A DNA stretch of 64,000 nucleotides from an uncultured virus (IMG/VR IMGVR_UViG_3300030118_002929) (taxonomy: Duplodnaviria > Heunggongvirae > Uroviricota > Caudoviricetes): the IMG/VR virus record IMGVR_UViG_3300030118_002929; one strand, given 5' to 3'. The position numbers were made by a program, and so were the translations under genes. The notes under the pieces are model-generated. The model worked only from the letters and a program-made list of their open reading frames with translations, was not told where the DNA came from and searched no databases. This document shows, piece by piece, positions 1 to 64,000 of this stretch (position 1 is its first letter; each line of letters begins with the position of its first letter).

Positions 1-999
1 AGTGCTACATTTGTTGGTGCAATGCTGGGAATATCAGCAGGATTAGTTGCATTTGCAATAGGTGAAACTGTGGCATCTACTTCACAAGCAATATCACAGT
101 TTTTGACACCCGACTTTGCACAACAAATAAAAGATAATGTTTTAACTCTTTTAAGTATATCTCAACTAGATGGTATCGGAATGGATACTGCAGGATTTGT
201 TGCAGTTATGGGAGGACTATCAGCAGGATTAATTGCATTTGCAATAGGTCAAACAGGAGCAAGTATGGCAGATGCTCTTTCTAGATTTATGACAGGCAAA
301 GATAAATTCTCAACTGCTATCGTAGATAATGTAAAAGAACTTATGACGATATATGATATACCTGTAATTAAAGATGGTTCAGCAACAGGAGAAACATTTG
401 CTGAATTAATGAGTGGTATAGGTAGAGGATTAAATGCTTTTGCAGGAGGTCAGTTAGGAAGTGCATTGAAAGGTGTAGGAACAAGTATTCTTAACTTCTT
501 AACAGGTAATGAAAGTCCTATTGAAGAAATGGTAAAACTTGCCGACAATGCAAAAGATTTAGATACTGCCTCAGATGCTATAGAAAAACTAGCAACTTCA
601 TTATCAGTTATTTCAGCAATGAAGTTTGATGGTTCTAATTTAAATTTCAAAGCATTTGCAAAAGATTTAAAAGAATCCGTACCTATCATTGAAGCGGCGA
701 TTATGGGTGATGATGGTGGTTTCTTTGGAAGTAAAATTGAAGGTCTTGCAAGTAGTAACATTAAATACGAAGATGCAGTAAAAAATATTAAGATGTTAAG
801 AGAGGCATTAGTTGCCATGCCTAGAACTGCAGGGTTACAAACTTCACAAGCAACTAATACTGCAGAAGGAGGAACAGGAAATAATACTATCGTTGCGCCT
901 ACTGTAGTGGATGCAAGTGTTAACGATAGTTCACAACCTGTTACTACAATTACAGGAAGAGATAGTTTTAATCAACCATCATACGCACAATATGTTTAA
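1..999 (+). CDS. C-terminal part of a tape-measure-like or baseplate-associated virion protein (5' end outside window)
   Basis: Frame is open from the window edge. Ala/Gly-rich helical repeats (GISAGLVAFAIGE, GLSAGLIAFAIGQ, GIGRGLNAFAGGQ). Lies upstream of the hub and gp5 genes. Confidence 0.5.
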   Translation, partial: SATFVGAMLGISAGLVAFAIGETVASTSQAISQFLTPDFAQQIKDNVLTLLSISQLDGIGMDTAGFVAVMGGLSAGLIAFAIGQTGASMADALSRFMTGKDKFSTAIVDNVKELMTIYDIPVIKDGSATGETFAELMSGIGRGLNAFAGGQLGSALKGVGTSILNFLTGNESPIEEMVKLADNAKDLDTASDAIEKLATSLSVISAMKFDGSNLNFKAFAKDLKESVPIIEAAIMGDDGGFFGSKIEGLASSNIKYEDAVKNIKMLREALVAMPRTAGLQTSQATNTAEGGTGNNTIVAPTVVDASVNDSSQPVTTITGRDSFNQPSYAQYV

Positions 1000-1012
1000 G
1001 GAGTGATGATAA

Positions 1013-2431
1013 ATGGCACAACAAAAAGATGTTACGAACTCACAAGCAATAGTAAAAAGTTTTAAAATATATCACAATACAGTTAAAGATTTTAAAAGTG
1101 CCAGAGAGTCCGATGCGTTTATTGATATAGTTGATATATACAATTCTTTTTCTATTCACGAAACTATTTTAAATCCTTTTATAACTGCAACAGTCAATGT
1201 TTCAGATACTAATAATATGTTAACTGAAATGCCTATTATAGGCGGTGAGATAGTTAGAGTTAGATTTTTACCACCAGGTGGTGATGATACAGACGAAAGA
1301 GATTTAGTATTTCGTATTGCTAAAATATCAAATGTTACGATAGTTGAGAAAAGACAACATTTTAATTTACATCTCTTATCTTATGCAGGATTTAAAAATA
1401 TAACAACTAGAATATCTAGAGCATTTAAAGGTGATGCAACAACTATTGTAGATGATATTTACTACAACTATCTGTTTACTAAAATGGATACAAGTGCAAC
1501 TAAAGATTTAAACTTTGATAATTCTCTTAGCACATTAAAATTTATTTGTCCTAATTGGTCACCGGCAAAAGCAATTCAATATGCAATGCGTTATGCATAT
1601 ACTAGAGATAAAGGTGTCAACTTACCTAATTTTTTCTTTTATGAAACTTTAAATGATTTTTATTTTCTAAACACTAATACTTTATTCGATAGAGAAAAAA
1701 ATGTTTGTGTAACAGATAAGTATGACGAAATACTTAACATAAGACCTGAAGGTAAAATCGCTAAAGGTTATCATTACAAACAACCAGGTATACCTGTAGT
1801 AGGGGCAGATGGATTACCTAGGTCAAATCTTGTAGGTGATGAAAGTTATCAGAATGTTGATGAGTTTATGATAGATGATGAAAATACATTTGCTGAAGAT
1901 TACATGTCTGGTAATATAACTACTAGTAATACAACGCATGATATTTTTCATAAAAGTTATAGTACACAATCATTTAATTACTATGATGACTTTGACAAAT
2001 TTCCTAGATTAGGAAACAATCAAAAATATGTAAGATATAACGATATGGGTGAGAGTTCAAATATTAATAAATCTTTTACACCTAAGCATTCTAGAAATCA
2101 TTCTAACTTAGTTAATCAAACAGGTGAAAGAGCAACATATTCAGATACAGTTGTTTTAAATAGAAGTCAAATAGTAAAACAAATGTTTGAAGAAGTAATA
2201 ACTAATTTTGAAGTGCCAGGTCATACACTTATAAATGCTGGTAAACTAGTAGATTTTAATTTTCCTTCTGCTAGAGAGATAAACAATTTAGCAAAAGCAT
2301 ATGATAAACATCGTAAAGGTTTATATTTAATTAGAGACTGCATACATAAAATTGTAAATCAAGGTTCAGGAAAAGCGATTTATAAGTGTAACATGAATAT
2401 TGTAAAGGATGGTTATCACGATGTCGAATAA
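1013..2431 (+). CDS. Baseplate hub protein, T4 gp27-like
   Basis: SD AAGGAG. Hub-type motifs (SIHETILNPF..MPIIGGE, VPGH..INAGKLV, GLYLI..CIH). Directly upstream of gp5. Confidence 0.65.
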   Translation: MAQQKDVTNSQAIVKSFKIYHNTVKDFKSARESDAFIDIVDIYNSFSIHETILNPFITATVNVSDTNNMLTEMPIIGGEIVRVRFLPPGGDDTDERDLVFRIAKISNVTIVEKRQHFNLHLLSYAGFKNITTRISRAFKGDATTIVDDIYYNYLFTKMDTSATKDLNFDNSLSTLKFICPNWSPAKAIQYAMRYAYTRDKGVNLPNFFFYETLNDFYFLNTNTLFDREKNVCVTDKYDEILNIRPEGKIAKGYHYKQPGIPVVGADGLPRSNLVGDESYQNVDEFMIDDENTFAEDYMSGNITTSNTTHDIFHKSYSTQSFNYYDDFDKFPRLGNNQKYVRYNDMGESSNINKSFTPKHSRNHSNLVNQTGERATYSDTVVLNRSQIVKQMFEEVITNFEVPGHTLINAGKLVDFNFPSAREINNLAKAYDKHRKGLYLIRDCIHKIVNQGSGKAIYKCNMNIVKDGYHDVE

Positions 2432-3386
2432 AGAAATGCCAATGTTAACTAAAGAACAACAAAAACATTTTATGGGATTCAATGGTTTTACTTGGTGGAT
2501 AGGTGTAGTAGAAGATAATAATGATCCTGAAAAACTTGGTAGAGTAAGAGTTAGATGTTTAGGTTTACACACAGAAAATAAAAACGAATTACCTACTGAA
2601 GACTTGCCATGGGCAACACCTATGATGCCTTTGACTTCAGGTTCTATATCACAAATAGGACAAGCACCTACAGGACTACAAAATGGTTCATGGGTTGTAG
2701 GTTTCTTTAGAGATAATGAAGATTGTCAAGACCCAGTTGTTATGGGTTCTTTTTATGGGTACCCTATGGAAAGACCTAATACTGATTTAGGATTTTGTGA
2801 TGCATCAGGAACACACCCTATAGAAATTGAAGAACCAGATACATCTAGATTAGCAAGAGGTTTAACAACTTCTAAAGTATATCAAGCAAAGAAGGCACTA
2901 TTAGATTTAGAAACACAAGACTTACATACTATTGCAAATGTAAGTGATACTTGGGCATCATTGTCTAACCCATATGCGGCAAGATATCCGTTTAATAAAG
3001 TAAATCAAACAGAGAGTGGTCATGTAATAGAGTTAGATGATACACCCAATGCAGAAAGAATTAATATTCAACATAAAAGTGGAACCTTTTTAGAGTTTCA
3101 CCCTAATGGTGATATTAGAGTTTTAGGTAAAAATGGTGAAGTGATTATTCAAGGAGGATTAAATGTTCATATTACTGGCAATGTTAATCTTACTTGTGAT
3201 AACGCATTTAATCATCATGTCAAAGGTAACTATAGTTTACAAATAGACGGAACTAAAACTGAAGTCGTAACAGGTCTTGTAAGTGAAACTTATAAGGCAA
3301 ATCAAACAACAAAAATAACAGGAAAATTAGATTTAGATGCATCTAGCGAAGTTGATGTAGATGCAGGAATTATTAATTTGAACTAG
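2421..3386 (+). CDS. gp5: Baseplate central spike gp5 (OB-fold plus beta-helix, no lysozyme domain)
   Basis: WWIGVVEDNNDPEKLGRVRVR..LPWA, YPFNKV..TESGHVIELDDTP..ERI..HKSGTF. Start could be 2409, 2421 or slightly downstream. Confidence 0.9.
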   Translation: MSNKEMPMLTKEQQKHFMGFNGFTWWIGVVEDNNDPEKLGRVRVRCLGLHTENKNELPTEDLPWATPMMPLTSGSISQIGQAPTGLQNGSWVVGFFRDNEDCQDPVVMGSFYGYPMERPNTDLGFCDASGTHPIEIEEPDTSRLARGLTTSKVYQAKKALLDLETQDLHTIANVSDTWASLSNPYAARYPFNKVNQTESGHVIELDDTPNAERINIQHKSGTFLEFHPNGDIRVLGKNGEVIIQGGLNVHITGNVNLTCDNAFNHHVKGNYSLQIDGTKTEVVTGLVSETYKANQTTKITGKLDLDASSEVDVDAGIINLN

Positions 3387-11105: not shown

Positions 11106-14100
11106 ATGGCAGTCATTGACTTTAATGTATCACCTTATTATGATGATTTTGAAACAAATGCGAAAGGTAAAGGTTATCACCGAGTTCTCTTTCGACCAGG
11201 TTTTCCTGTTCAAGCGAGAGAGTTAACTCAGTTACAATCTATACTACAAAATCAAATTGATAGATTTGGTAAACATATGTTCGAAGATGGGAGCATGGTT
11301 ATACCAGGCGATATCAACTTTGATTTAGAATATGATTTTGTTAAGATACAATCAACATTCAACGCAACGAATGTTGAAAGTTATAGAACTGACTTTTTAA
11401 ATAAAATTATTATTGGCGGTACCACAGGTATTAGAGCAAAAGTTATTGGGACAGTCGCTGCCACATCCTCAGACCCATTAACTCTTTATATTAAATACGA
11501 AACTTCTGGTACTTCAGACAATAATTTCGATATTAAAAAATTTGAAAATGGTGAAATTATTACATCACTAAATGCAAATAATACTACAATTAAAAACCCA
11601 TTACTCTCAACTAATCAAACTACAGAAATCAGCGCCCAGTTACAAACCACAGACGCAACTGGGACTGGTTCTGCAGTAAAAATTAATTCTGGTGTTTATT
11701 TTATTAACGGATTCTTTGTAGCAAATTCACAACAAACAATATTACTAGACAAATATTCAGATAGACCTTCTTATAGAATAGGATTTGAAGTAACACAATC
11801 TACAGTTACTCCTGAAGAAGATACTCAACTAAATGATAATGCTCAAGGTTCATCAAACTATGCCGCACCAGGTGCCCATAGATATGACATTTCAGTAACC
11901 CTTGTAAAGAAAACTTTAACAGAAACTACAGATACAAACTTTGTTGAACTTGCAAGACTAGAGAATGGTACAATACAAAGATATTCTAAGTATGCCGATT
12001 ATGCAATACTAGAACAAACACTTGCAAGAAGAACTTTTGACGAGAGTGGTGATTATGAAGTTAAACCTTTTCAATTAGACATTAGAGAGCATTTACTTAG
12101 TGGTAATAATCGAGGTGTATTTACTACTGCAGACGGAGGTCTTGAAAGTAAACTTGCTTTAGGACTAGAACCTGGTAAAGCATATGTCAAAGGTTATGAA
12201 ATAGAAAGTTACGCAAAGAAATTTATTTCTGTAGATAAACCTAGAACTTTTGATAGAGAAACAGATAAACCTATACAAACACCAATAGGTAACTTTATTG
12301 TTGTTAAAAATGTTACAGGTATGCCTGATATTGATGAGTTCGAAGTATTAGATATTCACGATGATTTAAAAGGTGGTTCACCTGCCGTAATAGGAACATG
12401 TAGAGTAAGAGGTTTTATATTACATAGTGGTGATTATACTGGCACACAAGCAAACATGGAATTTAAACTTGGTATCTTTGATATCAAGATGAATGACGGA
12501 AAAGATTTTACAAGAGATGCAAGAGGTTTCGAAAACTCAGGCAATACATTTAATTGTGATATTAAACCTACTCTTAAAACACTACAAGGTACTGCAACAA
12601 CAACTTCAAGTTCAACTGCACTAGTTGGGCAAGGAACAAGTTTCTTAACAGAATTAAAAACTGGTGATGTAGTATTCATTGATGGAGAAAGAATAGGAGA
12701 GATTGCATCTGCCACAGGAAATAATTTAAGTAAAACATTAACTGCTAATGGATTGCAGGCAAAAACTGCAGGTGTCATTTCAAGATTTGAAGCACCTTTG
12801 ACAAGACCTGACCAAAAAATATTAGTATTTCCAACTAACTTCTTTAGAATGAGAAAAGTAAGAGGAGATAGTGTATCTAATCCAGATAATGTTAAATCGT
12901 CTTCATACACAGTTAGAAGAAAATTTGCAACGGCAACTGTAGCATCAGGTTCTGTATCATTTACTTGTGCAGGAACTAATGAAACATTTACATCAATCGC
13001 ATCACTCAAAAATTATACATTGATTGTTAACACAGGACAATCACCAACTACTGATGGAGAAATCGCAGATATAACATCAAGCAATCTAGCACTATCAGGA
13101 TCAGATAGAACACTTACAATATCAAATTTAGGAAGTTTATCTACTAATGCTTTAGCAGATGGAACCACAGTAGATTTAATTGCCTCAGTTAGAGTTGCTT
13201 CAGATGATGGTGTGGAAAAATCTAAAACTTTAAATAGTAATTCTACAGTACAAATTTCAACTGCAGTAGCGGCACAGAAAACAGAAATCACTTTAGGTAA
13301 AGCAGATGGATTTGCATTAAAATCTGTCAAGATGGCGGCAGACTTTAGTACAAATGCAGTATCAACTGATACAGATATTACAAACAGATTTACTTTTGAT
13401 GATGGTCAAAGAGATGCATTCTATGACTTATGTAGAATTAAATTAAAACCTGGTCAACCTGTACCAACAGGAAGACTATTAGTTACATTTGACTTCTTTA
13501 CTCATGGTGCTGGAGATTATTTCTCAGTAGATAGTTATGATGGTGTTGTAGATTATACTGTAATACCTCAATACAAATCTAAAGACCAAGATGGTAGAGT
13601 TTTTGATTTAAGAGATTGTTTAGATTTTAGACCAAGAGTAGCAGATAGCGGAACAAGTTTCACAGGTAGTGGAGGTTCTGTAGGAGAACTAGTTGAAATA
13701 GGAACTAATGTTGAGGCAGACTTCTCTTATTATTTACCGAGAGTAGATAAAGTTGTTATTGACTACTCAGGTAGAACTACAGTAGTTGAAGGTGTTCCTC
13801 AATTATCACCACACGCACCACAAGATATTGATGATGCAATGACACTATTTGAAGTATCATATTTACCATATGTTTTAAATACAAAAGAAGTTGTCGCTAA
13901 GAAAATAGACAACAAACGATACACAATGAGAGACATTGGTAAAATAGAAAAAAGAGTTACAAACTTAGAATACTATACTTCTCTAAACTTACTAGAAAAA
14001 GAAACTGCAGATTTAGTTGTTAAAGATGCAAATGGTTTAGATAGACTTAAAAACGGATTTATTGTAGATAACTTCTCAGGTCATAATATTGGTAATGTTC

Positions 14101-42598: not shown

Positions 42599-42623
42599 GA
42601 TAACTAAACCTTAAGGATTAATA

Positions 42624-45165: not shown

Positions 45166-45196
45166 AGGTATTGTTCTTGAAGGGACTACACCGTAG

Positions 45197-45225: not shown

Positions 45226-45244
45226 GAAGAAATATGGAGAAATC

Positions 45245-45811: not shown

Positions 45812-45813
45812 TT

Positions 45814-48788: not shown

Positions 48789-49846
48789 AAATAGCATTAA
48801 TTACTGATACTCACTTCGGTGCAAGAAACGATAGTGAAGTATTTAATAATTACTTTTTTAAATTTTATGATAATGTGTTCTTTCCTTATTTAAAAGAACA
48901 TAATATAAAACATTGTATTCATCTAGGTGATATTACAGATAGAAGAAAGTTTATAAACTTTAAAACACTAGATAAATTCAGACATGACTTTGTATATAAG
49001 TTAGGTCGATACGATGTAGATACACATGTTATAATCGGTAATCATGATACCTATTATAAAAACACAAATGAAATAAACAGTATGAATACATTGTTTACTT
49101 CTTTCGATGGTAAGTATGAACCTTACATTTATACAAAAGCAACCGAAGTAGATTTTGATGGTTGTAAAATGTTATTTCTACCTTGGATATGTGATGACAA
49201 TAGAGATGAAACAATGCAGATGATTAAAGATACAGATGCACAAATTGTTATGGGTCATCTAGAAGTCAAAGGTTTTACAATGTATAAAGGTTTCACAAAC
49301 TTTGACCATGGTTTAGATAGACAGACATTTGATAAATTTGATTGTGTATATACAGGTCATTTTCATCACAAATCAACGCAAGGTAATATAACTTATCTAG
49401 GTAATCCTTATCAAATTACTTGGTCAGACTACGGCGATAAAAGAGGTTTTCATATTTTCGATACTGAAACAAGAGAAATTGAATTTATAGAAAATCCTTA
49501 TTCTATATTTGCTAAGTTAAATTATGATGATAGAGAAAAGAACTATGAAGACTTTGATGTATCAGAATATAAAGATAAGCATGTGAAAGTAGTTGTATTG
49601 AATAAGATAAACAATGTTCAGTTTGATAAACTCATAGACAAGTTATATGCAGTAGGTGTTGCAGAGTTAACAATCATAGAAGATTTTACAGACTTTGATG
49701 CAACATTTGTAGATGATAAAAATCTAAAGTTAGACGATACTTTATCTTTATTACATACCTATGTAGATGAAGTCGATACTACTGCAGACAAAACAAGAAT
49801 AAAAGATGATATGAAAAGATTGTATGTTGAGGCAAGTAATCAATGA
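48785..49846 (+). CDS. gp47: Recombination nuclease gp47 (Mre11-like)
   Basis: DTHFG, HLGD..DRR, GNHD, GHFH. Confidence 0.94.
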   Translation: MKIALITDTHFGARNDSEVFNNYFFKFYDNVFFPYLKEHNIKHCIHLGDITDRRKFINFKTLDKFRHDFVYKLGRYDVDTHVIIGNHDTYYKNTNEINSMNTLFTSFDGKYEPYIYTKATEVDFDGCKMLFLPWICDDNRDETMQMIKDTDAQIVMGHLEVKGFTMYKGFTNFDHGLDRQTFDKFDCVYTGHFHHKSTQGNITYLGNPYQITWSDYGDKRGFHIFDTETREIEFIENPYSIFAKLNYDDREKNYEDFDVSEYKDKHVKVVVLNKINNVQFDKLIDKLYAVGVAELTIIEDFTDFDATFVDDKNLKLDDTLSLLHTYVDEVDTTADKTRIKDDMKRLYVEASNQ

Positions 49847-51552: not shown

Positions 51553-52097
51553 CAAAAATATTACCGTTAATAGTTCCTACAAAAGCGAACTTTGAACCTA
51601 AGCAATTTGATTTTGATAATCCTATACAAGATCCTGTAGAATTAGCAGACCAACTATGGGAGAATATGAAACACTATAAAGGTGTTGGGTTGTCAGCAAA
51701 TCAGATAGGTATAGATGCAAAAGTATTTGTCATGGGTATGGGTGAAGGCAAAGATGAATTTAGATTAAATGTTTTCAATCCTATGATAATGGCAATATCA
51801 GATGAGATGTCAGAATATACAGAGGGTTGCTTAACCTACCCTGGTCTGTTTATGAAAGTTAAAAGACCTAAAACTTGTACTGTTCAATATTATAATGAGA
51901 AAGGTGAAGACCAAAAGTTTACATTTGATGCATTAACATCTAGAGTATGGTTACATGAATATGACCATATGGTAGGTAGAGACTTTACAAGTAGAGTTTC
52001 TAAAATGGTTTTTGATAGAGCAATCAAGAAAAGAGATAAACTTATAAAGAAGATGGTGAGAGAAGGTAAACTACAACCACCACCTAAGAGTGTATAA
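51549..52097 (+). CDS. def: Peptide deformylase
   Basis: GVGLSANQIG, EGCL, HEYDH. Confidence 0.92.
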   Translation: MTKILPLIVPTKANFEPKQFDFDNPIQDPVELADQLWENMKHYKGVGLSANQIGIDAKVFVMGMGEGKDEFRLNVFNPMIMAISDEMSEYTEGCLTYPGLFMKVKRPKTCTVQYYNEKGEDQKFTFDALTSRVWLHEYDHMVGRDFTSRVSKMVFDRAIKKRDKLIKKMVREGKLQPPPKSV

Positions 52098-52588
52098 TGA
52101 TTAAGTTGCCTAAAGCAGGAGAGATAGTTGAATATGATGTAATGACATTTCCAACATTTGACTGGAATGATTTATTTAAAAGTAGAACTATAGAAAAAAG
52201 TATTGATAGTTTAGGTGATGAAGGTATAAGATTAATTCATGACAAAGAGAAGTTACCTAGTTTAGTTGTTCATGATGCTACACATATACCACAAGTAAAC
52301 TTAATGAAACAAGAAATAAAGCATGTACGAAGACCTACACAACCTTTCGATGTAAATTGTCATGCTTATATATCTTTTGCTAGAAACTCAGATGTTTTTG
52401 GATTTCATGATGATTTAGACGATGTTTATATTTGGCAATGTTATGGAACTACAGATTGGGAAGTGCCTAAATATAACATACAGAATACTTTATTACCTGG
52501 TCAGATGATTTATATTCCTGCAGGTGTAAAGCATAGAGCAATAGTAACTGGTCCTAGAATATCAGTTAGTTTTAGTATAGGGACATAA
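52097..52588 (+). CDS. JmjC/cupin-type oxygenase
   Basis: FGFHDD.DDVYIWQ..G...W, PG.MIYIP.G..H.A....R.SVSF. Confidence 0.8.
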   Translation: MIKLPKAGEIVEYDVMTFPTFDWNDLFKSRTIEKSIDSLGDEGIRLIHDKEKLPSLVVHDATHIPQVNLMKQEIKHVRRPTQPFDVNCHAYISFARNSDVFGFHDDLDDVYIWQCYGTTDWEVPKYNIQNTLLPGQMIYIPAGVKHRAIVTGPRISVSFSIGT

Positions 52589-52589
52589 T

Positions 52590-53708
52590 ATGGAAGAGAT
52601 GAAAGCATGGCAACACGGATATCCTATGGACTATCTTGTCAATATACAAGACCGATATGCAGAATATAATAAGTATGCATTAGGTCCTTTTTTAGAAGTT
52701 AAGAAGAATAAAGTAGCACAAAGTTTACACGAAAAGAAACTTAAAGTTACAGATTACAATGCAATAGAAATTTCTGAAACTAAAGTTAAATCTGCTATTA
52801 AAATGCATGGTGATACTGTAATAGGTCATAAGTTACCAGGTGATATTACTTTTACAAAGATATCAAACTTTGATGATGATATCATGAGTATCATTAGATT
52901 GTATTCAGATAAAAATTGTTGGTTATATACATGGGCAGAATGGGGTGAAGCAAAACAATTTGCTAAGTTAAATAAGTTTAAATATATAGGTTGTAAAGTA
53001 AGTTCATTTGCTGAAGTACAAGCGATATACTTTAGAGATGCAAACAATGTATTAGAACCAAGAGAACATCCAACTTTACTTGGGGCAGAGACAGTAAATA
53101 TATCTAAATGTCAATTTATTGACATAGATACTAAAAAATTACAAGAAGAATTAGCACAATTAGATGTAGAATATACTAATCATTATTCGAACTATAATAA
53201 AGGTAAATCTTGGTCAGCAATATCATTAAGAGGATACAAAGATGATGTAAACTGTATTGTTAAACCTTTAGAGATGGATAAAAAATGGAAAGCAAAGAAT
53301 GAAGGTTGGGAAGATTGGCAACTTCAAGATGTAAGTATTCGAAATAAATTTCCTTATGTAAATGAGATTGTAGAAAAGTTACCTACTTCACAAGTTCATA
53401 GAATTAGATTTATGGCACTAGGACCTGGTGGGGGTGAGTTGTCTAGACACACAGACCAAGTAGACCCAACATTAGGTGTAGAAGATGGTAAGTTAATGAG
53501 ATTGCATATACCTGTCGTTACAAATCCTAATATGATTTTTAGTTCTTGGGACATGCATGGACATAAACATGACCATAATATGAAAGAAAGTGAAATGTGG
53601 TATCTAGATATTCGTAAACCTCACATGGCGATTAACAATGGTGATGCAACAAGAATACATTTAGTTATTGATGTTGAGGCAACTAAAGAAATGAGAGAAA
53701 TGTTATAA
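52590..53708 (+). CDS. Asp/Asn beta-hydroxylase-family protein with GNAT-like N-terminal half
   Basis: C-terminal HTD..RLHIP..TN..PH.A.N.G...RIHLV.D. N-terminal WLYTWAE..EA..F.....F.YIG resembles GNAT motif B (weak). Confidence 0.7.
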   Translation: MEEMKAWQHGYPMDYLVNIQDRYAEYNKYALGPFLEVKKNKVAQSLHEKKLKVTDYNAIEISETKVKSAIKMHGDTVIGHKLPGDITFTKISNFDDDIMSIIRLYSDKNCWLYTWAEWGEAKQFAKLNKFKYIGCKVSSFAEVQAIYFRDANNVLEPREHPTLLGAETVNISKCQFIDIDTKKLQEELAQLDVEYTNHYSNYNKGKSWSAISLRGYKDDVNCIVKPLEMDKKWKAKNEGWEDWQLQDVSIRNKFPYVNEIVEKLPTSQVHRIRFMALGPGGGELSRHTDQVDPTLGVEDGKLMRLHIPVVTNPNMIFSSWDMHGHKHDHNMKESEMWYLDIRKPHMAINNGDATRIHLVIDVEATKEMREML

Positions 53709-54238
53709 TGAAAGAAGTATTAACAATAGATGAATTAGTTGAACCTGATTTAATTAAATCTATGCATCATGAGTATGCACATAATTATTATTGGCAATAT
53801 GGTCATCATGGTTCAGATGATGCACCTAGATTTTTTGTTGCTCAACATAATATGAATGGTGGTAAGATATTTAATTGTCCTTTTCAAATATATCTTAAAA
53901 CAAAAATAGAAGATGAACTAAACTGTAAATTTACATATATTGATGACATATACTTAAATGGTCAGACAAAAGGATTTGATGGTGGTGAACATATAGATGT
54001 TTTACCTAGTGATAAAAAAGCATTAGAAAAAATTACAGTATTATATATGGTCAATCATGAACATACAGAGACAATAGGTAATTTTCATTGTGCAGGTCAA
54101 GAAATAAAATTTAAACCTGGTAGAGTTGTATTATTTCCATCTGTAATGCAACATGAAGGCAAAGCACCTACTAATAATCATTTAAGAATAACACTTGCCT
54201 GGAAAGCATGTGATATCAGTTTTGCCGAGACAAAGTAG
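53708..54238 (+). CDS. 2OG-Fe(II) oxygenase
   Basis: NGQT...G..HID, F.PGR.VLF.S...H...P....R.TLAWK. Confidence 0.8.
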   Translation: MKEVLTIDELVEPDLIKSMHHEYAHNYYWQYGHHGSDDAPRFFVAQHNMNGGKIFNCPFQIYLKTKIEDELNCKFTYIDDIYLNGQTKGFDGGEHIDVLPSDKKALEKITVLYMVNHEHTETIGNFHCAGQEIKFKPGRVVLFPSVMQHEGKAPTNNHLRITLAWKACDISFAETK

Positions 54239-54253
54239 AAAGTTTATGTTATT

Positions 54254-54481
54254 ATGAAAACTTATATACATGTAAATCAACATAAGATAAGAGCAAATAA
54301 GAAACATGGAACAAATGAACCTGTCATTACTGTTAAGCGAGGTAAAGAAAACACTTACTGCCATGAAGTCAAAGTTCTCGGTCCTAGTACCGTGGTATAC
54401 GGCGGTAATGATAAACCTCTTCTTTCTTGTGGTGCTAGAGTTGTCATTATGACTGAAGGAGAAGTTGAGGTTGTTAAGTGA
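54254..54481 (+). CDS. Hypothetical protein (75 aa)
   Basis: IHVNQHKIR.N....EPVITVK.G..N.Y..EV...GPS..VY..KPLLSCGARV. GTGA overlap with the next gene. Confidence 0.8.
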   Translation: MKTYIHVNQHKIRANKKHGTNEPVITVKRGKENTYCHEVKVLGPSTVVYGGNDKPLLSCGARVVIMTEGEVEVVK

Positions 54482-56025
54482 AACATTTTTACGAAAAGAA
54501 TAGTTATCTTTTAAATCATGAAGTAAACAAAACATTTGAAGAAGTTTTGTGGATGTCAGATGATGAGTTTAAACAATGGTTAAGAGATATGAGACAAGCA
54601 GTAATACATGCTTGGGATAATCTAGGTATACCTCCTAGAGTAGGTTATAACGAGCAAGAGATTATTGACCAGTTTAATAAGATGAGTTCTTTTCCTGTTC
54701 ATGAGTTCGAATGCTTTAATGAAGAAACACAAAAGAATGATGTAATTAGAAATACTTCAGTTGTAGGTAATGCCGCTAATCAATGGTTTCCTACAATGAT
54801 GAAAACTAAAATAGTTTACAATAAAGTCGAAGATGCAAAATCAATATATGACCACTTTGTAGATGAAGACTTATTTCAAAAAGTTTACACATATGGTCAT
54901 AGACATTTTAAAAGAGATAGTTTTTATCACTATTCTAATCCTATACAACAAGGCAAACAAATAAAGATAGGTACTAAACTATACGAGACTACTACAGGTA
55001 GAGATTTTATCAACTGGTTTGAAAAAGAAGGTAGAGAATACGACACTCATGATTACTGGTTGAAACCTGACAAAGAGCAAGAATATACAGGTTACGATGA
55101 TAAACTTAGAAACTTAAAATTTCTACAGTTAACAAAAGATGAAATGCATGAGATGTCAGAATGGATACCTTCTAAATGTTTAGTTAATCTAAAAGATGAT
55201 ATAGATGTTTATCAAATTATGTTATTTGAAAAAGGTCAAAAGATATTTCCTTTAGGTTTTAAACCTTTTAGAATATCTTGGTGTCAATACGCAGTTAACT
55301 TTCCACCACTTACTGCAAAGTTTTTATATGAAAAATATACAGAGCATTTTAAAGACCAAGAACAAATTCGTATCTGGGATCCTAGTGCAGGTTGGGGTGG
55401 TCGTATTCTAGGTGCAATGTCAGTAAAAGATGATAGAAATATACACTACATCGGCACAGACCCTAATACAGACCATACGATTGAAGGTGGTACTAAGTAT
55501 GAAGACTTAGCAAAGTTCTTTAATGATAAGACATATAGAGGCAATGGTTTATTTCCTCACACAAACACATATGAAATACATCAAATAGGTTCTGAAGAAT
55601 ATAAAACTGATAATGAAAGTTTAGACATGATATTTACTTCACCGCCTTATTTTGCAAAAGAGGCATATAGTGAAGATGAAACACAATCTTATAAAAAGTT
55701 TGGTCAATACCAATCTTGGGTAGATGGTTTTTTAAGACCTACACTAACAAACTGTTACAACTATCTTAAATCCGACAGGTATCTATTATGGAATATCGCA
55801 GATGCGAAGTTCGGTAATGATATGCTACCTCTTGAACAAGATAGTATAAATATATGTAAAGAACTTGGATTTGAGTATATAGAGACATTGAAGATGGCAC
55901 TTGCTCAAATGCCTGGCGGTAACAGAGTAGATGAGGAAACAGGTAAACCTAGAGCAAAGAATTTTTGCAAAGTGAATGGGATATGGTTAAAATATGAACC
56001 AATATTTGTCTTTTATAAAAAGTAA
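54478..56025 (+). CDS. Amino-type DNA methyltransferase (N4-C or N6-A)
   Basis: GTG start. Motif I WDPSAGWGGR followed by motif IV FTSPPY. C-terminal EPIFVF.K. Confidence 0.8.
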   Translation: MKHFYEKNSYLLNHEVNKTFEEVLWMSDDEFKQWLRDMRQAVIHAWDNLGIPPRVGYNEQEIIDQFNKMSSFPVHEFECFNEETQKNDVIRNTSVVGNAANQWFPTMMKTKIVYNKVEDAKSIYDHFVDEDLFQKVYTYGHRHFKRDSFYHYSNPIQQGKQIKIGTKLYETTTGRDFINWFEKEGREYDTHDYWLKPDKEQEYTGYDDKLRNLKFLQLTKDEMHEMSEWIPSKCLVNLKDDIDVYQIMLFEKGQKIFPLGFKPFRISWCQYAVNFPPLTAKFLYEKYTEHFKDQEQIRIWDPSAGWGGRILGAMSVKDDRNIHYIGTDPNTDHTIEGGTKYEDLAKFFNDKTYRGNGLFPHTNTYEIHQIGSEEYKTDNESLDMIFTSPPYFAKEAYSEDETQSYKKFGQYQSWVDGFLRPTLTNCYNYLKSDRYLLWNIADAKFGNDMLPLEQDSINICKELGFEYIETLKMALAQMPGGNRVDEETGKPRAKNFCKVNGIWLKYEPIFVFYKK

Positions 56026-56644
56026 AGCAAACTTTAATAACCCTCCAGTAGATTTTGATACATGGGGTCAGTACGATTACGATGTACTGAAACATGAAAA
56101 GTATTGCTATAACACATATAGACACTTTTTAAAAAGTTACTTAGTTAATCCTAAAGAGAATACTGTATTTGATATCAACTGTGGTAAAGGATATGGCATA
56201 TCACATTTAGAAAAAGAGTTTGGTTTTAAAAAGTGTATAGGGTTTCAGTATAACAACGAACTACTTAACATATGTAAAGATACACACGATAATGTATCTT
56301 TTTATAAAGACTTCATACTATCAGCAAAAAAGAATGCAGATTTCATATTAGCATTTAACAGTTTACAACTACAAGACAATAAGACTGCCTTACTTATGAA
56401 GGTAGCACAATCTTTAAACAAAAACGGCACATTGATTATTGTTAATCAAGTTAACAATGAACATGAATATGACAGTTATATTAATATATTAGTTAAAACA
56501 CATGGGTTAACATTATTAGAAAATTATGATATTAGTCCTCATGTTGTTCAGGCAACTGATAGAATTTTTGAAATGAACAATTTACAGGCGGGTAATTATG
56601 CTTTCAATGGCAAGTTTATGGTCAGTATATTACAAAATCAGTAG
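55994..56644 (+). CDS. Class I SAM-dependent methyltransferase-like protein
   Basis: VFDINCGKGYG (variant motif I), L.K.G.LII. Confidence 0.6.
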   Translation: MNQYLSFIKSKANFNNPPVDFDTWGQYDYDVLKHEKYCYNTYRHFLKSYLVNPKENTVFDINCGKGYGISHLEKEFGFKKCIGFQYNNELLNICKDTHDNVSFYKDFILSAKKNADFILAFNSLQLQDNKTALLMKVAQSLNKNGTLIIVNQVNNEHEYDSYINILVKTHGLTLLENYDISPHVVQATDRIFEMNNLQAGNYAFNGKFMVSILQNQ

Positions 56645-56664
56645 CATAGTAAAATCTTTAACGA

Positions 56665-57111
56665 ATGAAACCTGAAATGTCTAAAAAGTTTCTAGATTGG
56701 ATAGAAACACAAGATACAAAAGATAAAACAGTAGTAGAAATAGGTACTGGTTATTCTTTAGCATATTGGACTAAACTTTTTGGTACTGCAATAGGATATG
56801 ACCATGATAATAAATGGATTGATATAGCGAGTAAGTTTGGCACAGTTAGAAAGTTTGATAAAGATATTTTTGAAAGTAAAAGATTTAAAACAGATATAGA
56901 AAATGCAGATTATGTTATTATAGATAATCACCCGATGAGTATTCGTAGAGAATATTTTGCAAATTATGTTATGAAAAATAGTAATGCGATTATAGTTTTA
57001 GACAATACAGAAACAAATCAACAAGCATACAATATATTATTTTCTAATTATTATATGAGAGATTTTCCTGATGTCGAGAATACTAGTGTTTTCTTTGAGA
57101 GGAGAAAGTAA
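56665..57111 (+). CDS. Class I SAM-dependent methyltransferase-like protein
   Basis: VVEIGTGYS, GYDHD..W, VIID, IIVLDN. Confidence 0.65.
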   Translation: MKPEMSKKFLDWIETQDTKDKTVVEIGTGYSLAYWTKLFGTAIGYDHDNKWIDIASKFGTVRKFDKDIFESKRFKTDIENADYVIIDNHPMSIRREYFANYVMKNSNAIIVLDNTETNQQAYNILFSNYYMRDFPDVENTSVFFERRK

Positions 57112-57776
57112 TGAAGATATTTAATAGTTTACATCCTACTAGCACAGTTTTAGGTACAAAACATATTCAAAGTGGTGTAGTAGAAAATTTCCCACAAGTG
57201 AGTGATATACTAAGAAAGTCTTGGCAGAGATTTCAAGATAAGAAAATTTTAAATAATAAGAATACAAATCTAACAGGAAAGATGAGTCCTTACTTTTCAG
57301 ATTTATATGATCCTTCAATGAAACATATTATTAACATATTTAAACCATATGTTCAAAATTTTATGCTACAAGGAAAACAGTATTTTCCTGGTGTTATGGA
57401 ATATGTTGAATGTGGTGAAATATGGATTAGCGAATACAACGAAGGGCATAAAGCACACTCTCATACACACTATCCTTTTCATATAGCGATGTCGTATTAC
57501 TTTGATATAGAAGATGCAACACCTATACAATTTGAAGTATTTGATCCTGAACAGGCACATTTTCCTAACAATCTACAAAATAACTCAACAGTAACAATTA
57601 CACCTACTGAAGGATTATATGTTTTATTTGATGGTGATATTAAACATAGTGTTCCTGAATGTAGGGGTAAACGAATAGTAGTGGCAAGTAACTGGTATTT
57701 CGACCTTAAAGGATATTGTGAAAAGGGTAAAAAAACTACTAAAGCAGAGACCGATGATTGGTTAGAACATAAGTAG
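57111..57776 (+). CDS. Putative 2OG-Fe(II) oxygenase
   Basis: W...Y.EG.....HTH....SYY, P.EG..VLF.....H.V......RIV...N. Confidence 0.75.
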   Translation: MKIFNSLHPTSTVLGTKHIQSGVVENFPQVSDILRKSWQRFQDKKILNNKNTNLTGKMSPYFSDLYDPSMKHIINIFKPYVQNFMLQGKQYFPGVMEYVECGEIWISEYNEGHKAHSHTHYPFHIAMSYYFDIEDATPIQFEVFDPEQAHFPNNLQNNSTVTITPTEGLYVLFDGDIKHSVPECRGKRIVVASNWYFDLKGYCEKGKKTTKAETDDWLEHK

Positions 57777-57780
57777 AACA
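57764..57780. promoter_or_regulatory. Alphaproteobacterial-type LexA box GAAC-N7-GAAC
   Basis: AGAACAtaagtAGAACA, about 20 bp upstream of a -35 element. Confidence 0.55.
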
Positions 57781-57799
57781 AAATAATTTAAAATAACCC

Positions 57800-57829
57800 T
57801 TGACAAATAAACCTGTTCCATGCTAAATT
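57800..57829 (+). promoter_or_regulatory. Early sigma70-type promoter
   Basis: taaccc-TTGACA-18 nt-(TGc)TAAATT with AT-rich upstream element. Confidence 0.7.
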
Positions 57830-57835
57830 AATATT

Positions 57836-57985
57836 ATGATGATATTGAAAGCACTATTCTTGCCATTTACACTACTGTTCAAATTAGGTAAGTGGTTCGT
57901 ATATTTTATATTTTTCATGTTAGGATGCTATTTATTCCTAGTTTTTCTGATTTATTTTGCCGCCTTTGTTGCAAATATTTTATAA
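57836..57985 (+). CDS. 49-aa hydrophobic membrane peptide, probably leaderless
   Basis: MMILKALFLPFTLLFKLGKWFVYFIFFMLGCYLFLVFLIYFAAFVANIL. ATG lies 6 nt after the -10 box. Confidence 0.6.
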   Translation: MMILKALFLPFTLLFKLGKWFVYFIFFMLGCYLFLVFLIYFAAFVANIL

Positions 57986-57995
57986 ATCGTTGATT
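57983..57995. promoter_or_regulatory. IHF consensus site
   Basis: TAAatcgTTGATT is the reverse complement of WATCAANNNNTTR; followed by T-tracts. Confidence 0.5.
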
Positions 57996-58023
57996 TTACT
58001 AGGTTTTTTAATGCATTTTTTTC

Positions 58024-58053
58024 TTGACATATAAAACTGTTTCGTGCTAATAT
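58024..58053 (+). promoter_or_regulatory. Early sigma70-type promoter
   Basis: TTGACA-18 nt-(TGc)TAATAT. Confidence 0.7.
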
Positions 58054-58062
58054 GATTATATA

Positions 58063-60372
58063 ATGATGATAAAGAGTGAAAATATGAATATACAAAATAC
58101 CAAATCAAGTCTAGCAAAATTACTTGCTACAGAAAATATTACTGTAGAATTTGCTAATGTGCAAACTGCACAATTCGATGTAAAAAACAGAATTTTAGTC
58201 TGCCCTCAATATAAAGATATGACTAATGAGATGTACGATTTATTCGTAGGGCATGAAGTTTCTCATGCTTTATATACTCCTTCAGATGGTCATGAGCAAT
58301 ATCCAGTTAAAGACAAAAACTTTCACTCTTTTGTCAATGTAGTTGAAGATGCTAGAATTGAGAGATTTATTCAAGATAAGTATCCTGGTCTTAAAAAAGA
58401 TTTCTACAAAGGTTACTCTCAGTTAAAAGAAAAAGATTTCTTCAGCATTAAAGATAAAGATGTTAATTCTTTATTGCTTATTGATAGATTAAATCTTAAA
58501 GCAAAATTAGGTACTCAAATTGATATTGAGTTCAATGAAACTGAACAAAAGTTTTTTGATGCTATGATGACTAGCAAAACTTTTGATGAAGTTCTAAAAA
58601 TTTCTAAAGACCTTTTTGACTATTGTGGTAAAGAGTTAGAAGAAAAAGAAAAAGAAGGTAAAGATGTTTCCGCTTATACTATTAAGCAAGATGAGAATGG
58701 TGTCGAAGTAGAGCAATCAGAAACTTCTACACAAGAAGAAAATCAAGAAGAAGAAAAAAATAATATGGGTGCTGGCGATAGTACCGATAACGATACTACT
58801 GAAACTGACCAAGAAGAAAAAGCAGATACTACTAGCAACGAAAATTCAGATGATGAAAAATCAGATGATGATAGTTCTAAAACTGCTACCGAAGATAATA
58901 AGAACAAAGGCAAACAATCAGATACCGATGAGGCAACTAAACCAGGTGCTAAGTCGATTACTGATACTGCAAGTCAACAATCTCTAAAAGAACAATTAGA
59001 AGATGATGAAAGCAAGATTTTTGACTATTGCGATTTCCCTAAAACTTTAGATTATAAAAAGTTCATTGTTGACAATGCTACAGTTATTAAAGAGTTAACT
59101 CAATATTGGGCACAAACTAACAATGATTATAAAAGCATTCTTCAGAGAAATGCTAAGAAATTTAAAGATGACAACCAAAAAGTTGTTAATTACTTGCACA
59201 AAGAATTTGAAATGAAAAAAGCGGCAGATAGTTATGCCAGAGCAAGTGAGAGTAAAACTGGTGTTATCAATACTAACAAGTTATTTTCTTACAAGTACAA
59301 TGAAGACTTGTTTCAAAAAGTAATGACTACTCCTGATGCTAAAAATCACGGTATGATTTTCTATCTTGATTGGTCAGGCAGTATGCATGATAATATGAAA
59401 GGTACTATTATGCAGTTGTTGAACCTAGTTCTATTCTGTAAAAAAGTAAATATACCTTTTAGTGTTTATGCATTTAGTTCTCATTATAGAAAATATTCTA
59501 GTGAGTTTGCAAATATTAATAATACTAATGCACAATCTAAAAACTTGAATGAGATGATTATTCACCCTTACAAGTTTTCACTTCTAGAGTTGATTACTAG
59601 TGATTGTAAAACTGCTCAATTCAACCAAGCATTTGAGTGTTTAGTTGCTTTAATGAATATCTACTCACACGATAAAAGATATGAAGGCGACTTTTGTTAT
59701 TTCGATTTGCCTAGCAGTTATTACCTAGGGCAGACACCTTTGAATGATGCAATCGTATGTTCTAAGTATATGATACAAGATTTTCAATCTAAGCATAAAG
59801 TTCAAATTATGAATGCAGTATTCTTAACTGATGGTTCTAGTCATTGTCTAGAAGGTAAGTTCGCTATTGAGAACGGCACGATGACCGCTAAAGATGTTGG
59901 GTATACTAATGCAGTTATCAGAGATAAAAAGTCTAGAGTTGAGATATCTGATTTATCTAAAGGCAAATATTATAGAAGAGCAGATTTTACCAAGAAGTTG
60001 TACCTAGCAGTAAAACAAGTTACTGGTGCTAATATGATTGGTTTCTTTGTTGCCTCTAGAAGAGATTTAGAATATGCATATTGGGATGCTCAGAGTTGCC
60101 CTAATATGAAAAAAGCAAAAATCAGATATTCAGATGATTTCAAAAAGTATGTTAAGAAAAACAAATTTTTTGCTTCTACTGTTAGCGGTCTTGATACCTT
60201 GTTTGTAGTGCAAGGGGGTAAAGATTTGCATGTTGATAATAGTTCAGTTCTAGATGAATTACAATCAGATGCTAAAAAAAGTCAGATCCAAAGTGCCTTC
60301 AAAAAAGCAAGTAAAGGCAAATTGCAATCTAGAATTATGCTAAACAAGTTTATTGAGAATATTGCCGCCTAA
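58063..60372 (+). CDS. CobT-like vWA protein with N-terminal HExxH domain
   Basis: HEVSH, NVVEDARIE, acidic linker, MIDAS DWSGSM, TPLN, FLTDG. Confidence 0.85.
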   Translation: MMIKSENMNIQNTKSSLAKLLATENITVEFANVQTAQFDVKNRILVCPQYKDMTNEMYDLFVGHEVSHALYTPSDGHEQYPVKDKNFHSFVNVVEDARIERFIQDKYPGLKKDFYKGYSQLKEKDFFSIKDKDVNSLLLIDRLNLKAKLGTQIDIEFNETEQKFFDAMMTSKTFDEVLKISKDLFDYCGKELEEKEKEGKDVSAYTIKQDENGVEVEQSETSTQEENQEEEKNNMGAGDSTDNDTTETDQEEKADTTSNENSDDEKSDDDSSKTATEDNKNKGKQSDTDEATKPGAKSITDTASQQSLKEQLEDDESKIFDYCDFPKTLDYKKFIVDNATVIKELTQYWAQTNNDYKSILQRNAKKFKDDNQKVVNYLHKEFEMKKAADSYARASESKTGVINTNKLFSYKYNEDLFQKVMTTPDAKNHGMIFYLDWSGSMHDNMKGTIMQLLNLVLFCKKVNIPFSVYAFSSHYRKYSSEFANINNTNAQSKNLNEMIIHPYKFSLLELITSDCKTAQFNQAFECLVALMNIYSHDKRYEGDFCYFDLPSSYYLGQTPLNDAIVCSKYMIQDFQSKHKVQIMNAVFLTDGSSHCLEGKFAIENGTMTAKDVGYTNAVIRDKKSRVEISDLSKGKYYRRADFTKKLYLAVKQVTGANMIGFFVASRRDLEYAYWDAQSCPNMKKAKIRYSDDFKKYVKKNKFFASTVSGLDTLFVVQGGKDLHVDNSSVLDELQSDAKKSQIQSAFKKASKGKLQSRIMLNKFIENIAA

Positions 60373-63042: not shown

Positions 63043-63044
63043 TA

Positions 63045-63992
63045 ATGAATAAACTTAATGATGAATATTTGTGGGTTGAGAAATATCGACCTCAAACTGT
63101 AAGTGATTGTATCTTACCTAAACATCTAGAAGATACATTTTTAAACTTTGTAGAGAACGGCGAGATACCTAATTTGTTACTATGTGGTACTGCAGGTGTT
63201 GGTAAGACAACGATTGCAAAAGCACTATGTCAGCAAATGGGTTATGACTGGATAATCTTAAATGGTTCTAGTGAAGGTGACATTGATACCTTACGAACTA
63301 AGATAGTTAACTTTGCATCTACTGTATCCTTTTCAGGCAAAGGTAAAGTTGTTATCTATGATGAGGCAGATTACTTAACTGCAGTAACACAACCTGCACT
63401 AAGAAATTTTATTGAAGAGTTTAGTAAGAATTGTAGATTTATATTTACATGTAACTATAAGAATAAAATTATACCTGCTCTCCATTCTAGATGTTCAGTT
63501 ATAGAGTTTTCTGTACCTAAGAATGAGAAACCTAAAATAGCAACTAGGTTCTTAAACAGATTAGAAGATATTTTTAAAGAAGAAAAAATAAAGTATCAAG
63601 AACAATCTATTGCAGAGGTTGTTACTAAATTTTTTCCTGATTTTAGAAGAACATTAAACGAGTTACAAAAACTTTCTATCGGCGGCAGTATAGATGCTGA
63701 GGCAATCAAAGGTGCTGGTGATGTAAGTATTAAAGAGGTCATTGAATATTGTAAAGTTAAAGACTTCAAGAATATGAGAAAGTGGGTAGCAGATAATATC
63801 CATGTAAACGATGCGAATACTATTTTCAGAAAGATTTACGATACAATGTATGAATATCTTAAACCACAATCTGTACCTGTTGCAGTTTTAAAGATTGCAG
63901 ACTATCAGTACAAGAATGTGCATGTAGCAGACCCAGAGGTCAATCTAACTGCCTTCTTTACTGAAATAATGGTCGATTGTGAGTTTATGTAA
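63045..63992 (+). CDS. gp44: Clamp loader large subunit gp44
   Basis: LWVEKYRP, GTAGVGKTT, DEADY, ALHSRC, FPDFRR. Confidence 0.95.
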   Translation: MNKLNDEYLWVEKYRPQTVSDCILPKHLEDTFLNFVENGEIPNLLLCGTAGVGKTTIAKALCQQMGYDWIILNGSSEGDIDTLRTKIVNFASTVSFSGKGKVVIYDEADYLTAVTQPALRNFIEEFSKNCRFIFTCNYKNKIIPALHSRCSVIEFSVPKNEKPKIATRFLNRLEDIFKEEKIKYQEQSIAEVVTKFFPDFRRTLNELQKLSIGGSIDAEAIKGAGDVSIKEVIEYCKVKDFKNMRKWVADNIHVNDANTIFRKIYDTMYEYLKPQSVPVAVLKIADYQYKNVHVADPEVNLTAFFTEIMVDCEFM

Positions 63993-64000
63993 TGCCTACA

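Follow-up and report, generated by a model that had tools for sequence, protein, structure and literature searches.

Flank-dependent survival of palindromic sites in an uncultured marine T4-like phage points to a CC/GG-context DNA mark with an SPPY methyltransferase as its candidate writer

Short-motif modification of viral DNA is already known from several systems. Chloroviruses encode M.CviPII and M.CviQIX, which modify the first C of CC(D), so that a great number of positions is affected and restriction sites that overlap them gain resistance (PMC9636781). In the T4-like cyanophage S-B43, which infects Synechococcus, CmoX writes 5-carboxymethyl-C at the two-base motif GC and blocks HhaI (PMC12783734), and partial 7-deazaguanine modification by DpdA, at GA in Pseudomonas phage iggy, likewise combines a short motif with broad protection from restriction (PMC10484667). 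In a single-molecule real-time (SMRT) sequencing survey, Hiraoka et al. 2022 (PMC8919816) reported that marine Myoviridae-like metagenome-assembled genomes (MAGs) often carry several N4-methylcytosine (m4C) motifs without matched known enzymes, among them RGCY, CCWGG, GGWCC, CCNGG and GGHCC, with RGCY the motif most often methylated in marine viral MAGs. Here we analyzed a stretch of 64,000 nucleotides from an uncultured virus (IMG/VR record IMGVR_UViG_3300030118_002929), referred to in its whole length as the window, which derives from a T4-like, cyanophage-type marine myovirus with a G+C content of 33%. Across positions 1-64000, palindromes of the form G...C are kept only with a G on their 5' side or a C on their 3' side, a footprint without strand. 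The window also encodes a 515-amino acid (aa) SPPY amino-methyltransferase, MT515 (54478-56025, plus strand), which is our candidate writer of a protective mark and belongs to an uncharacterised and very widespread family. No paper on flank-dependent site survival or a CC-context mark in T4-like marine phages was found, as judged from listings and abstracts.

Comparison with these systems revealed both likenesses and differences. The chlorovirus enzymes are C5 methyltransferases of the PF00145 type, come from viruses of eukaryotic algae and are paired with a nicking enzyme, whereas MT515 is of the SPPY amino-methyltransferase type; no PF00145 gene was found among the 54 scanned window open reading frames (ORFs), nor in the related records G002, G007, G008, G009 and G010. 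In the chlorovirus report, C5 methylation of CC gives resistance to HaeIII, whereas the window instead purges GGCC. As in S-B43, a second protein with an S-adenosylmethionine (SAM) methyltransferase fold adjoins the transferase, and this 216-aa window protein resembles CmoA weakly (E 4e-4, below the cut-off). CmoX, in contrast, is a C5-methyltransferase homologue that uses Cx-SAM at GC (PMC12783734), and the window candidate is an amino-methyltransferase type with the motif CC. A 7-deazaguanine pathway, which a first-pass annotation of the window had offered as an alternative, was not borne out: TGT/DpdA (PF01702) was not found among the 54 scanned window ORFs or in any of five related records, including the complete genome G007, and was recovered in 14 of 14 control genomes. 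Neither TET-associated glycosyltransferase (TAGT, PF20691) nor TET/JBP genes were found in the window, and tblastn with the TAGT proteins of L087 matched only L084, L085, L087 and L088 among the relatives introduced below. A further likeness comes from Supplementary Data S2 of the SMRT survey, which lists for a 50% complete Myoviridae MAG, CM1_5m.V27 (V27; LC629481; 93.7 kb, 31.65% GC), m4C at DCC (2496 of 4409 sites) together with 'GCT' and GANTC motifs. V27, compared by table row only, is like the window a marine myovirus of low GC content, and DCC is the motif of the shield proposed below; the DCC density of the window scaled to 93.7 kb gives 4212 sites against 4409 in V27. The motif occurs nowhere else in Supplementary Data S2 or in the main text of the survey, which assign no enzyme to it. 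Since the supplementary file gives DCC for V27 only, it lists the motif for no prokaryote MAG (233 surveyed, 108 with motifs).

To quantify the footprint, sites were counted as flanked/unflanked, where a flanked site has G 5' or C 3', and compared with synonymous codon shuffles of 54 ORFs (300 or 200 shuffles) that kept the proteins and the per-gene codon usage. Seven classes pooled gave 0 unflanked sites compared with ~290 expected, and 133 flanked sites compared with ~144 expected. The individual counts were 50/0 for GATC (null 62.2 ± 5.2 / 94.3 ± 7.2, with 78 the lowest unflanked count in any shuffle), 39/0 for GANTC (30.6/100.6), 11/0 for GCGC (12.6/13.3), 4/0 for GCWGC (10.5/36.5), 1/0 for GAATTC (3.8/14.9), 21/0 for GTSAC (20.1/20.9) and 7/0 for GTATAC (4.5/9.3). 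No shuffle approached zero unflanked sites for the larger classes, and GTGCAC (2/0) and GTCGAC (1/0) obeyed the same rule. Unflanked sites are wholly purged and flanked ones stand near the neutral expectation. The control sites GTWAC, GTTAAC, GGWCC, CCWGG, TCGA, CATG, CTAG and TGCA fitted the null in both flank classes (GTWAC 42/126, null 44.5/111.5; GTTAAC 4/24; GGWCC 5/18; CCWGG 17/44). No base constraint beyond the single flanking G or C was found in the window, and a search there for one-sided rescue of non-palindromic words returned nothing beyond trivial consequences of missing AGCC and AGCT. Fully absent from the window were ACGT, AGCT, CGCG, AGCC/GGCT, CASTG, AGTACT, TGTACA, CAATTG and ATCGAT, and GGCC occurred once; in all, more than 15 specificities are purged.

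Much of this pattern had been noticed by eye in the first-pass annotation, which described some 40 GATC sites, each GGATC or GATCC, GANTC sites always written GGANTC or GANTCC, 11 flanked GCGC, three flanked GCWGC, a single GAATTC in the form GGAATTC, and no AGCT. Exact counting upheld the flank pattern and raised the GATC total to 50: the 11 GCGC lie precisely where it had placed them, the GAATTC is at 39569, AGCT has a count of 0, a fourth GCWGC, also flanked, was located at 9712 (GGCAGCA), and the coordinates it quoted are correct to within 1 base. The check it had proposed, palindromes split by flank against a codon-shuffled null, is the comparison given above. Its account of codon choice held equally well. 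Before a codon starting with C, Asp is written GAC 61 times and GAT 25 times, and 24 of the 25 GAT-C junctions are flanked; overall, GAT outnumbers GAC 1105 to 287. Ser codons that follow a GAN codon are AGY in 99 cases and TCN in 20, against overall totals of 930 TCN and 453 AGY. Ala-Ala is written GCG-GCA 25 times and GCA-GCA twice, though GCA accounts for 811 of the 1242 Ala codons. A near-identical contig that runs 5.3 kb past the window end keeps the rule (GATC 2/0, GANTC 2/0, GCGC 1/0). An assembly or library artefact cannot account for the site pattern: synonymous codons stand in intact genes where sites have been lost, and many independent runs contain the same sequence.

We next examined relatives of the phage, comprising 160 IMG/VR loci (L numbers) around methyltransferase and gp46 relatives together with four large records (G numbers). 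In 112 non-duplicate related sequences (2.18 Mb), each 4- and 5-base palindrome was scanned against four flanks, and an event was scored when all copies (n ≥ 5) shared a flank at p < 1e-3. This analysis revealed 32 events, in 26 sequences, in which G-initial palindromes were rescued by a G flank, compared with 0-4 events for each of the remaining 15 base/flank combinations (14 in all). Two of the 32 come from G001, the nearest record, which is 99.86% identical to window positions 26366-45902; it is the same phage and therefore gives no independent support. The rescue is particular to G...C palindromes that have a G/C flank. The rescued sites themselves vary: GATC and GANTC in the nearest relatives of the window (L002-L006, L008 and L046); GTAC in L121 (37/0), L018-L020 (20/0, 18/0 and 16/0) and L001 (14/0), as well as in L014, L015, L025, L031 and L032; GATC alone in L063 and L064 (11/0 in the latter); GCGC in L037 (7/0); and GCWGC in G007, a complete 150-kb genome (21/0). 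MT515 is carried by L121, L018-L020, L001, L064, L037 and G007 alike. A short shared shield predicts that unrelated sites across many lineages will obey a single flank rule, as they do here, and site-specific causes carry no such prediction.

A few sequences follow other flank rules. GCGC occurs only as TGCGC/GCGCA in L104 (17 sites), GATC only with T 5' or A 3' in L086 (12 sites), GGCC only as TGGCC/GGCCA in G002 (12 sites), and ACGT only as AACGT/ACGTT in L004 and L014 (17 and 19 sites). These minor rules may be footprints of other modification motifs. Separately, GAGCT/AGCTC is avoided in G007 (AGCT 2/146) and likewise in many relatives.

In each rescued class a CC step begins at the terminal C of the site, with T, G or A before it, so that the step reads DCC (TCC, GCC or ACC); on the other strand the first G of the site is the second G of GG. 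The C-initial palindromes of the window (CASTG, CGCG and CAATTG) are not rescued by a 5' C and are absent outright, so the simplest model places the mark inside the site, on the leading C of CC or the G paired with it. The footprint, its specificity and recurrence in relatives, and the conserved enzyme with its gene partners are direct observations. From them we infer a mark, the base that bears it, its chemistry and its writer, and our preferred reading, to which we give a probability of roughly 55%, is that a phage-written CC/GG-context mark shields G...C sites, with MT515 as its most likely writer and the first C, at N4, as the most likely position. That a CC/GG-context mark is the shield is the firmer part of this reading and is probable; that MT515 writes it stands at about even odds. 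Under this reading the phage would modify its DNA once it has been replicated, using a very short target; the first C of (D)CC, at the exocyclic N4, is the most likely position and the paired G a less likely one. A site ending in C and followed by C, which is to say with G before its initial G, would then have its outermost base marked on one strand, and the mark would block host enzymes for GATC, GANTC, GCGC, GCWGC, GTSAC, GTATAC and similar sites. Selection would purge all unflanked copies and leave flanked copies at neutral frequency, and sites unable to end in such a C (ACGT, AGCT, CGCG, CASTG, AGTACT, TGTACA, CAATTG and ATCGAT) would be removed entirely. The most likely writer in this scheme would be the product of 54478-56025. 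The first-pass annotation had proposed the same CC/GG shield; the zero unflanked and neutral flanked counts, the specificity of the rule, its recurrence in relatives, the presence of an SPPY enzyme and the DCC entry typed m4C speak for that proposal, and the purge of RGCY and the relatives that lack MT515, both discussed below, speak against it.

MT515 carries a motif I, DPSAGWGGR, at about residue 301 and a motif IV, FTSPPYF, at about residue 386, so that motif I precedes motif IV by ~85 residues, and all 19 aligned homologues keep DPSxGWGGR and FTSPPYF unchanged. A motif IV in the S-form, TSPPY, is typical of N4-cytosine methyltransferases. The protein scores 30.1 bits against PF01555 (N6_N4_Mtase; cut-off 26.7), its match covering just profile positions 2-70 of 221, and its homologues score 21.7 to 32.9 bits; judged by these profile scores, MT515 is a borderline, very divergent member of PF01555. 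The N-terminal ~290 aa are conserved and have no family match. Across lineages with the flank rule MT515 is 54-84% identical over its whole length, the N-terminal region included, and the 19 aligned homologues are 59-80% identical to the window protein over the full length; this conservation fits one shared short specificity and not a cognate methylase for each site. The family is unnamed, with members in 226 IMG/VR viral contigs and 2486 protein clusters at 90% identity, and in 84 loci the gene has one fixed place, between gp46 and a CobT-like gene. Sequence searches of MT515 against solved structures and against NCBIfam gave no match, and no close homologue was present among 50,697 phage records, where matches cover 26-48% at 28-35% identity. 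Among its remote tblastn relatives is a gene of a Vibrio phage that carries the annotation N-4 cytosine-specific DNA methylase. An AlphaFold model (mean predicted local distance difference test, pLDDT, 77) has a class I methyltransferase fold, which in this model would allow C-N4, A-N6 or G-N2 chemistry on a putative DNA substrate. In G007, MT515 is the sole DNA methyltransferase found in searches for PF01555, PF00145 and PF02086.

To determine whether the rule tracks MT515, we selected those G...C site classes whose totals fell below 0.4 of what base composition predicts and pooled their residual sites. In MT515-bearing sequences 583 residual sites were flanked and 134 unflanked (81% flanked; 81 depleted classes), compared with 49 and 69 (42%; 12 depleted classes) in slot-spanning sequences without MT515. 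Non-depleted classes were 35% flanked with MT515 and 36% without, against an expected 33%. These figures support a link between the flank bias and the presence of MT515. The split is visible only with classes chosen by total depletion and residual sites pooled: counting classes as rescued, partly rescued or not rescued gave no separation (46, 25 and 15 with MT515 vs 7, 4 and 4 without). Depletion without rescue was seen in relatives that lack the gene (L151, GTAC 1/10; L110, GCGC 1/5; L104, GTAC 3/1), and 50 kb of Synechococcus phage S-PM2, also without MT515, showed no clear flank rule (GCGC 16/12).

Several observations weigh against this assignment of the writer. The only methylases that the SMRT survey lists for V27 are two Dam-like enzymes (PMC8919816). 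The comparison of 81% with 42% ignores kinship, and the MT515 loci were chosen through the gene itself. The rule also occurs without MT515. In G002 (L171-L178), a cyanophage record of 156.6 kb, 81% complete and with cpeT genes, GCGC is 65/4; two D12-class adenine methylases are present, one beside a helicase, and no PF01555 or PF00145 gene was found there. The D12 enzymes, seen in G002 only, were rejected as the cause of its GCGC rescue, because GCGC contains no A. (In the same record GATC is enriched, 329/355 compared with 166/347 expected, and CCGG is absent.) In L084, L085, L087 and L088, two TAGT genes replace MT515 in the slot (L087, 8890-11285), and this clade has GANTC 8/1, 6/0, 6/0 and 2/0 and GCWGC 4/0, 2/0, 5/0 and 2/0. 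A 464-aa gene for a DruA-like protein (Druantia protein, PF14236) occupies the same slot in L134 (12285-14656), L131, L158, L143, L101, L124, L154 and L083, and these eight loci, which lack MT515, total GCGC 20/4. Two of them, L134 and L131, also carry a 326-aa gene without family match and have flanks 90-93% identical to those of the MT515-bearing L121, with the cassette swapped; they keep GTAC at 30/0 and 16/0. After a recent swap of cassettes a footprint can persist by inheritance, and marks of other kinds may be written by different cassettes. The first-pass annotation had proposed to ask whether related genomes show the rule only with the methyltransferase at 54478 or a 7-deazaguanine pathway; the bias follows the methyltransferase, the rule is not exclusive to it, and these exceptions lower our confidence in MT515 as the sole writer. 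As a separate observation, CGCG survives in the TAGT clade only with C 5' or G 3'.

The strongest rival accepts a real CC/GG-context mark and holds that its writer is not MT515 or that the mark is not m4C: another phage enzyme, possibly encoded outside the window, could act on the G of GG (for example at N2) or attach a bulky adduct, and writers could be lineage-specific. The relatives just described favor it, as do the alternative DNA-modification genes carried in the gp46-CobT slot. The fold matches of MT515 point the same way, the best being the N2-methylguanosine (m2G) RNA amino-methyltransferases Trm11, TrmN and Trm14 (Z 14.4-15.7; Foldseek, VIA-align), with generic methyltransferases within ~2 Z units. 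In G007, moreover, C-initial palindromes survive only with C 5' or G 3' (CASTG 28/0, CACGTG 9/0 and CAGCTG 4/0), and 30 of the 31 CCASTG words on both strands of this genome (L163-L170) have A, G or T before them. The marked base would here lie one position outside the site, a hint that the mark is bulky or that the enzymes read the flank. The pairing of MT515 with genes for pyridoxal phosphate (PLP)-like and hydroxylase-type proteins in most relatives also suits this rival. Set against it are G007, with MT515 as the only methyltransferase found in three families and no TGT/DpdA, the lack of any other recognised DNA-modifying gene in 69 kb of phage, the flanked bias of 81% vs 42%, and the typing of the DCC signal as m4C in the supplementary table of the survey. 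We regard this explanation as a minority possibility.

Other observations count against the shield as a general protection, whoever writes it. AGCC/GGCT has a count of 0 in the window (null ~64 and 44), GGCC of 1 (null ~23) and CCGG of 10 compared with ~26, even though AGCC holds the first C of CC on one strand and GGCC holds it on both. RGCY (AGCC, GGCT, GGCC and AGCT) is purged in the window and in its nearest relatives despite containing CC, so the shield is not universal. Either the enzyme concerned ignores the mark, or the writer skips R-G-C-C, or the avoidance has another cause. RGCY ranks first among the methylated motifs of the SMRT survey's marine viral MAGs (PMC8919816) and is thus clearly contested in marine communities. 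In G007, GAGCTC, GTCGAC, GCATGC and GACGTC are all 0/0, although base composition predicts ~6 flanked copies of each. Similarly, GATC is 0/0 in the MT515 loci L009 and L059 (expected 16/36 and 13/25) and is also absent from the MT515 loci L023 and L053. The absence of such sites from MT515 phages even when they could be flanked indicates that the shield fails against some enzymes; a GATC enzyme blocked only by adenine methylation, for example, would fit the missing GATC.

A second rival invokes no modification at all. The selecting agents would ignore flanked copies, through an extended specificity of the form H-G...C-D or through one nuclease family. Some restriction enzymes read degenerate flanks, and sequence alone cannot tell an unrecognised site from one that is recognised and blocked. 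Enzymes for seven or more unrelated sites would, however, need the same odd flank requirement across many hosts, flank rules of other kinds are rare, and L151, L110 and L104, which lack MT515, show depletion without rescue. We consider this explanation improbable. A host methyltransferase of the CC type that marks progeny DNA, making the shield host-derived and not phage-encoded, is marginally less probable again. The window data alone are compatible with a host enzyme, and the rule appears in lineages of differing cassette content; on the other side, the bias follows MT515 presence, the rule spans marine and other IMG/VR viral contigs whose hosts probably differ, and in the marine SMRT survey's supplementary file DCC is listed for one viral MAG and no prokaryote MAG (PMC8919816). 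Least probable of all is a historical footprint, in which an ancestor had the shield and the phage is now unmarked and protected otherwise: L134 and L131 do keep their GTAC footprint after a recent cassette swap and the window has lost the PLP-like partner gene of its nearest relatives, but MT515 is intact in the window with all motifs, 0 unflanked sites have re-arisen compared with ~290 expected, and flanked sites without a shield would be a liability if the same host enzymes persist.

If the preferred reading of a phage-written CC/GG mark is correct, a single short-motif mark would allow the phage to keep about one third of otherwise lethal restriction sites, which would explain a very clean pattern of sequence evolution, and a widespread unnamed enzyme family of environmental T4-like phages would acquire a motif and a biological role. 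Modification motifs of uncultured viruses would then be computable from which flank rescues purged palindromes, and the list of fully purged sites would be a readout of the restriction enzymes met in nature. A CC-specific N4 (or larger) DNA transferase might also find use in footprinting or epigenome mapping, for which the chlorovirus CC C5 enzymes are already employed. More tentatively, and with the odds against it, a very large uncultured clade of T4-like phages from marine and other environments, with 2486 protein clusters of the enzyme, would use this undescribed SPPY transferase with hydroxylase and PLP-type partners, marking one base of every (D)CC/GG step, possibly with a group larger than methyl. 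Such a partial hypermodification at the dinucleotide level would neutralise many restriction specificities together; surviving sites would reveal its target motif, and thousands of metagenomic phages could have their modification motifs and the restriction repertoires of their hosts deduced from sequence.

We also examined the genes that surround MT515, all on the plus strand. The variable slot is bordered on the left by gp46 (SbcC-like; 49843-51552), assigned by family scan and by gene order in 84 loci and S-PM2, and on the right by the CobT-like 'peptidase' (58063-60372; phrog_459, E 1e-198), and the order gp46, cassette, CobT-like, CobS is kept in the 84 loci and in S-PM2. Within the window cassette, a JmjC-like small protein (52097-52588; PF08007), found in 7 of the 84 MT515 loci, is followed by a 372-aa protein with a C-terminal Asp/Arg beta-hydroxylase-type domain (cupin/2-oxoglutarate, 2OG; 52590-53708; PF05118, E 1.7e-14) and, directly upstream of MT515, by a 176-aa 2OG-Fe(II) oxygenase-like protein (53708-54238; weak PF13759/PF13640 matches, phrog_274). 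Downstream are the 216-aa protein with a class I SAM-methyltransferase fold (55994-56644; Methyltransf_23/31/12/25/11) and the second 2OG-Fe(II) oxygenase of the cassette (57111-57776; PF13759). Among 76 slot-spanning loci, 33 have the hydroxylase-type gene together with MT515, 11 have MT515 alone, 32 have neither and 0 have the hydroxylase-type gene alone. A 255-aa PLP-like gene (weak PALP match) is present in 57 loci, every one with MT515, and is missing from the window, though it is present in the nearest relatives L002-L006 and L008; positions 53708-54478 of the window hold the 176-aa oxygenase-like gene and a 240-base gap in its place. Because MT515 travels with Asp/Arg-hydroxylase-type and PLP-like proteins in most relatives, its mark may be larger than a methyl group in relatives that have both partners. 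A dCMP-deaminase-type gene lies near MT515 in 27 of 74 clustered neighbourhoods. The 216-aa gene overlaps the end of MT515 by 32 bases and is found only in the closest relatives; its matches in NCBIfam are weak, with BioC the best and CmoA well below the cut-off. As an obligatory cofactor-maker it was rejected as a general partner, being beside MT515 in 7 of the 84 loci only.

The large ORFs of the window are all on the plus strand. They include a T4-type set of baseplate, neck, terminase, sheath, tube, portal, prohead protease, scaffold and major capsid genes, followed after the capsid genes by UvsY, UvsW, gp55, gp47/46, the CobT-like protein, CobS, gp45 and gp44, in the gene order of Synechococcus phage S-PM2. 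A near-identity search of window positions 43000-58000 against cultured phages gave just four matches of 60-80 bases and thus no close cultured relative in the phage collection searched. Eighteen public metagenome runs of marine or seawater origin, drawn from 9 studies and deposited as assembled contigs or Illumina reads, contain the stretch 50000-59000: 14 of them, dated 2014-2025, have it nearly entire (0.91-0.97 of sampled words) and 4 more in part. Since this stretch recurs in 18 runs and no close cultured relative was found, the phage is a common, widespread and probably uncultured marine T4-like myovirus. Further genes encode a peptide deformylase, several 2OG oxygenases and, between gp55 and gp47 (45814-48788), two adjacent proteins of the tryptophan-halogenase family with 494 and 497 aa (PF04820, E 1e-93 to 1e-94). 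Positions 11106-17618 encode a 2170-aa protein of the baseplate or tail-fibre region with a DUF4815 domain.

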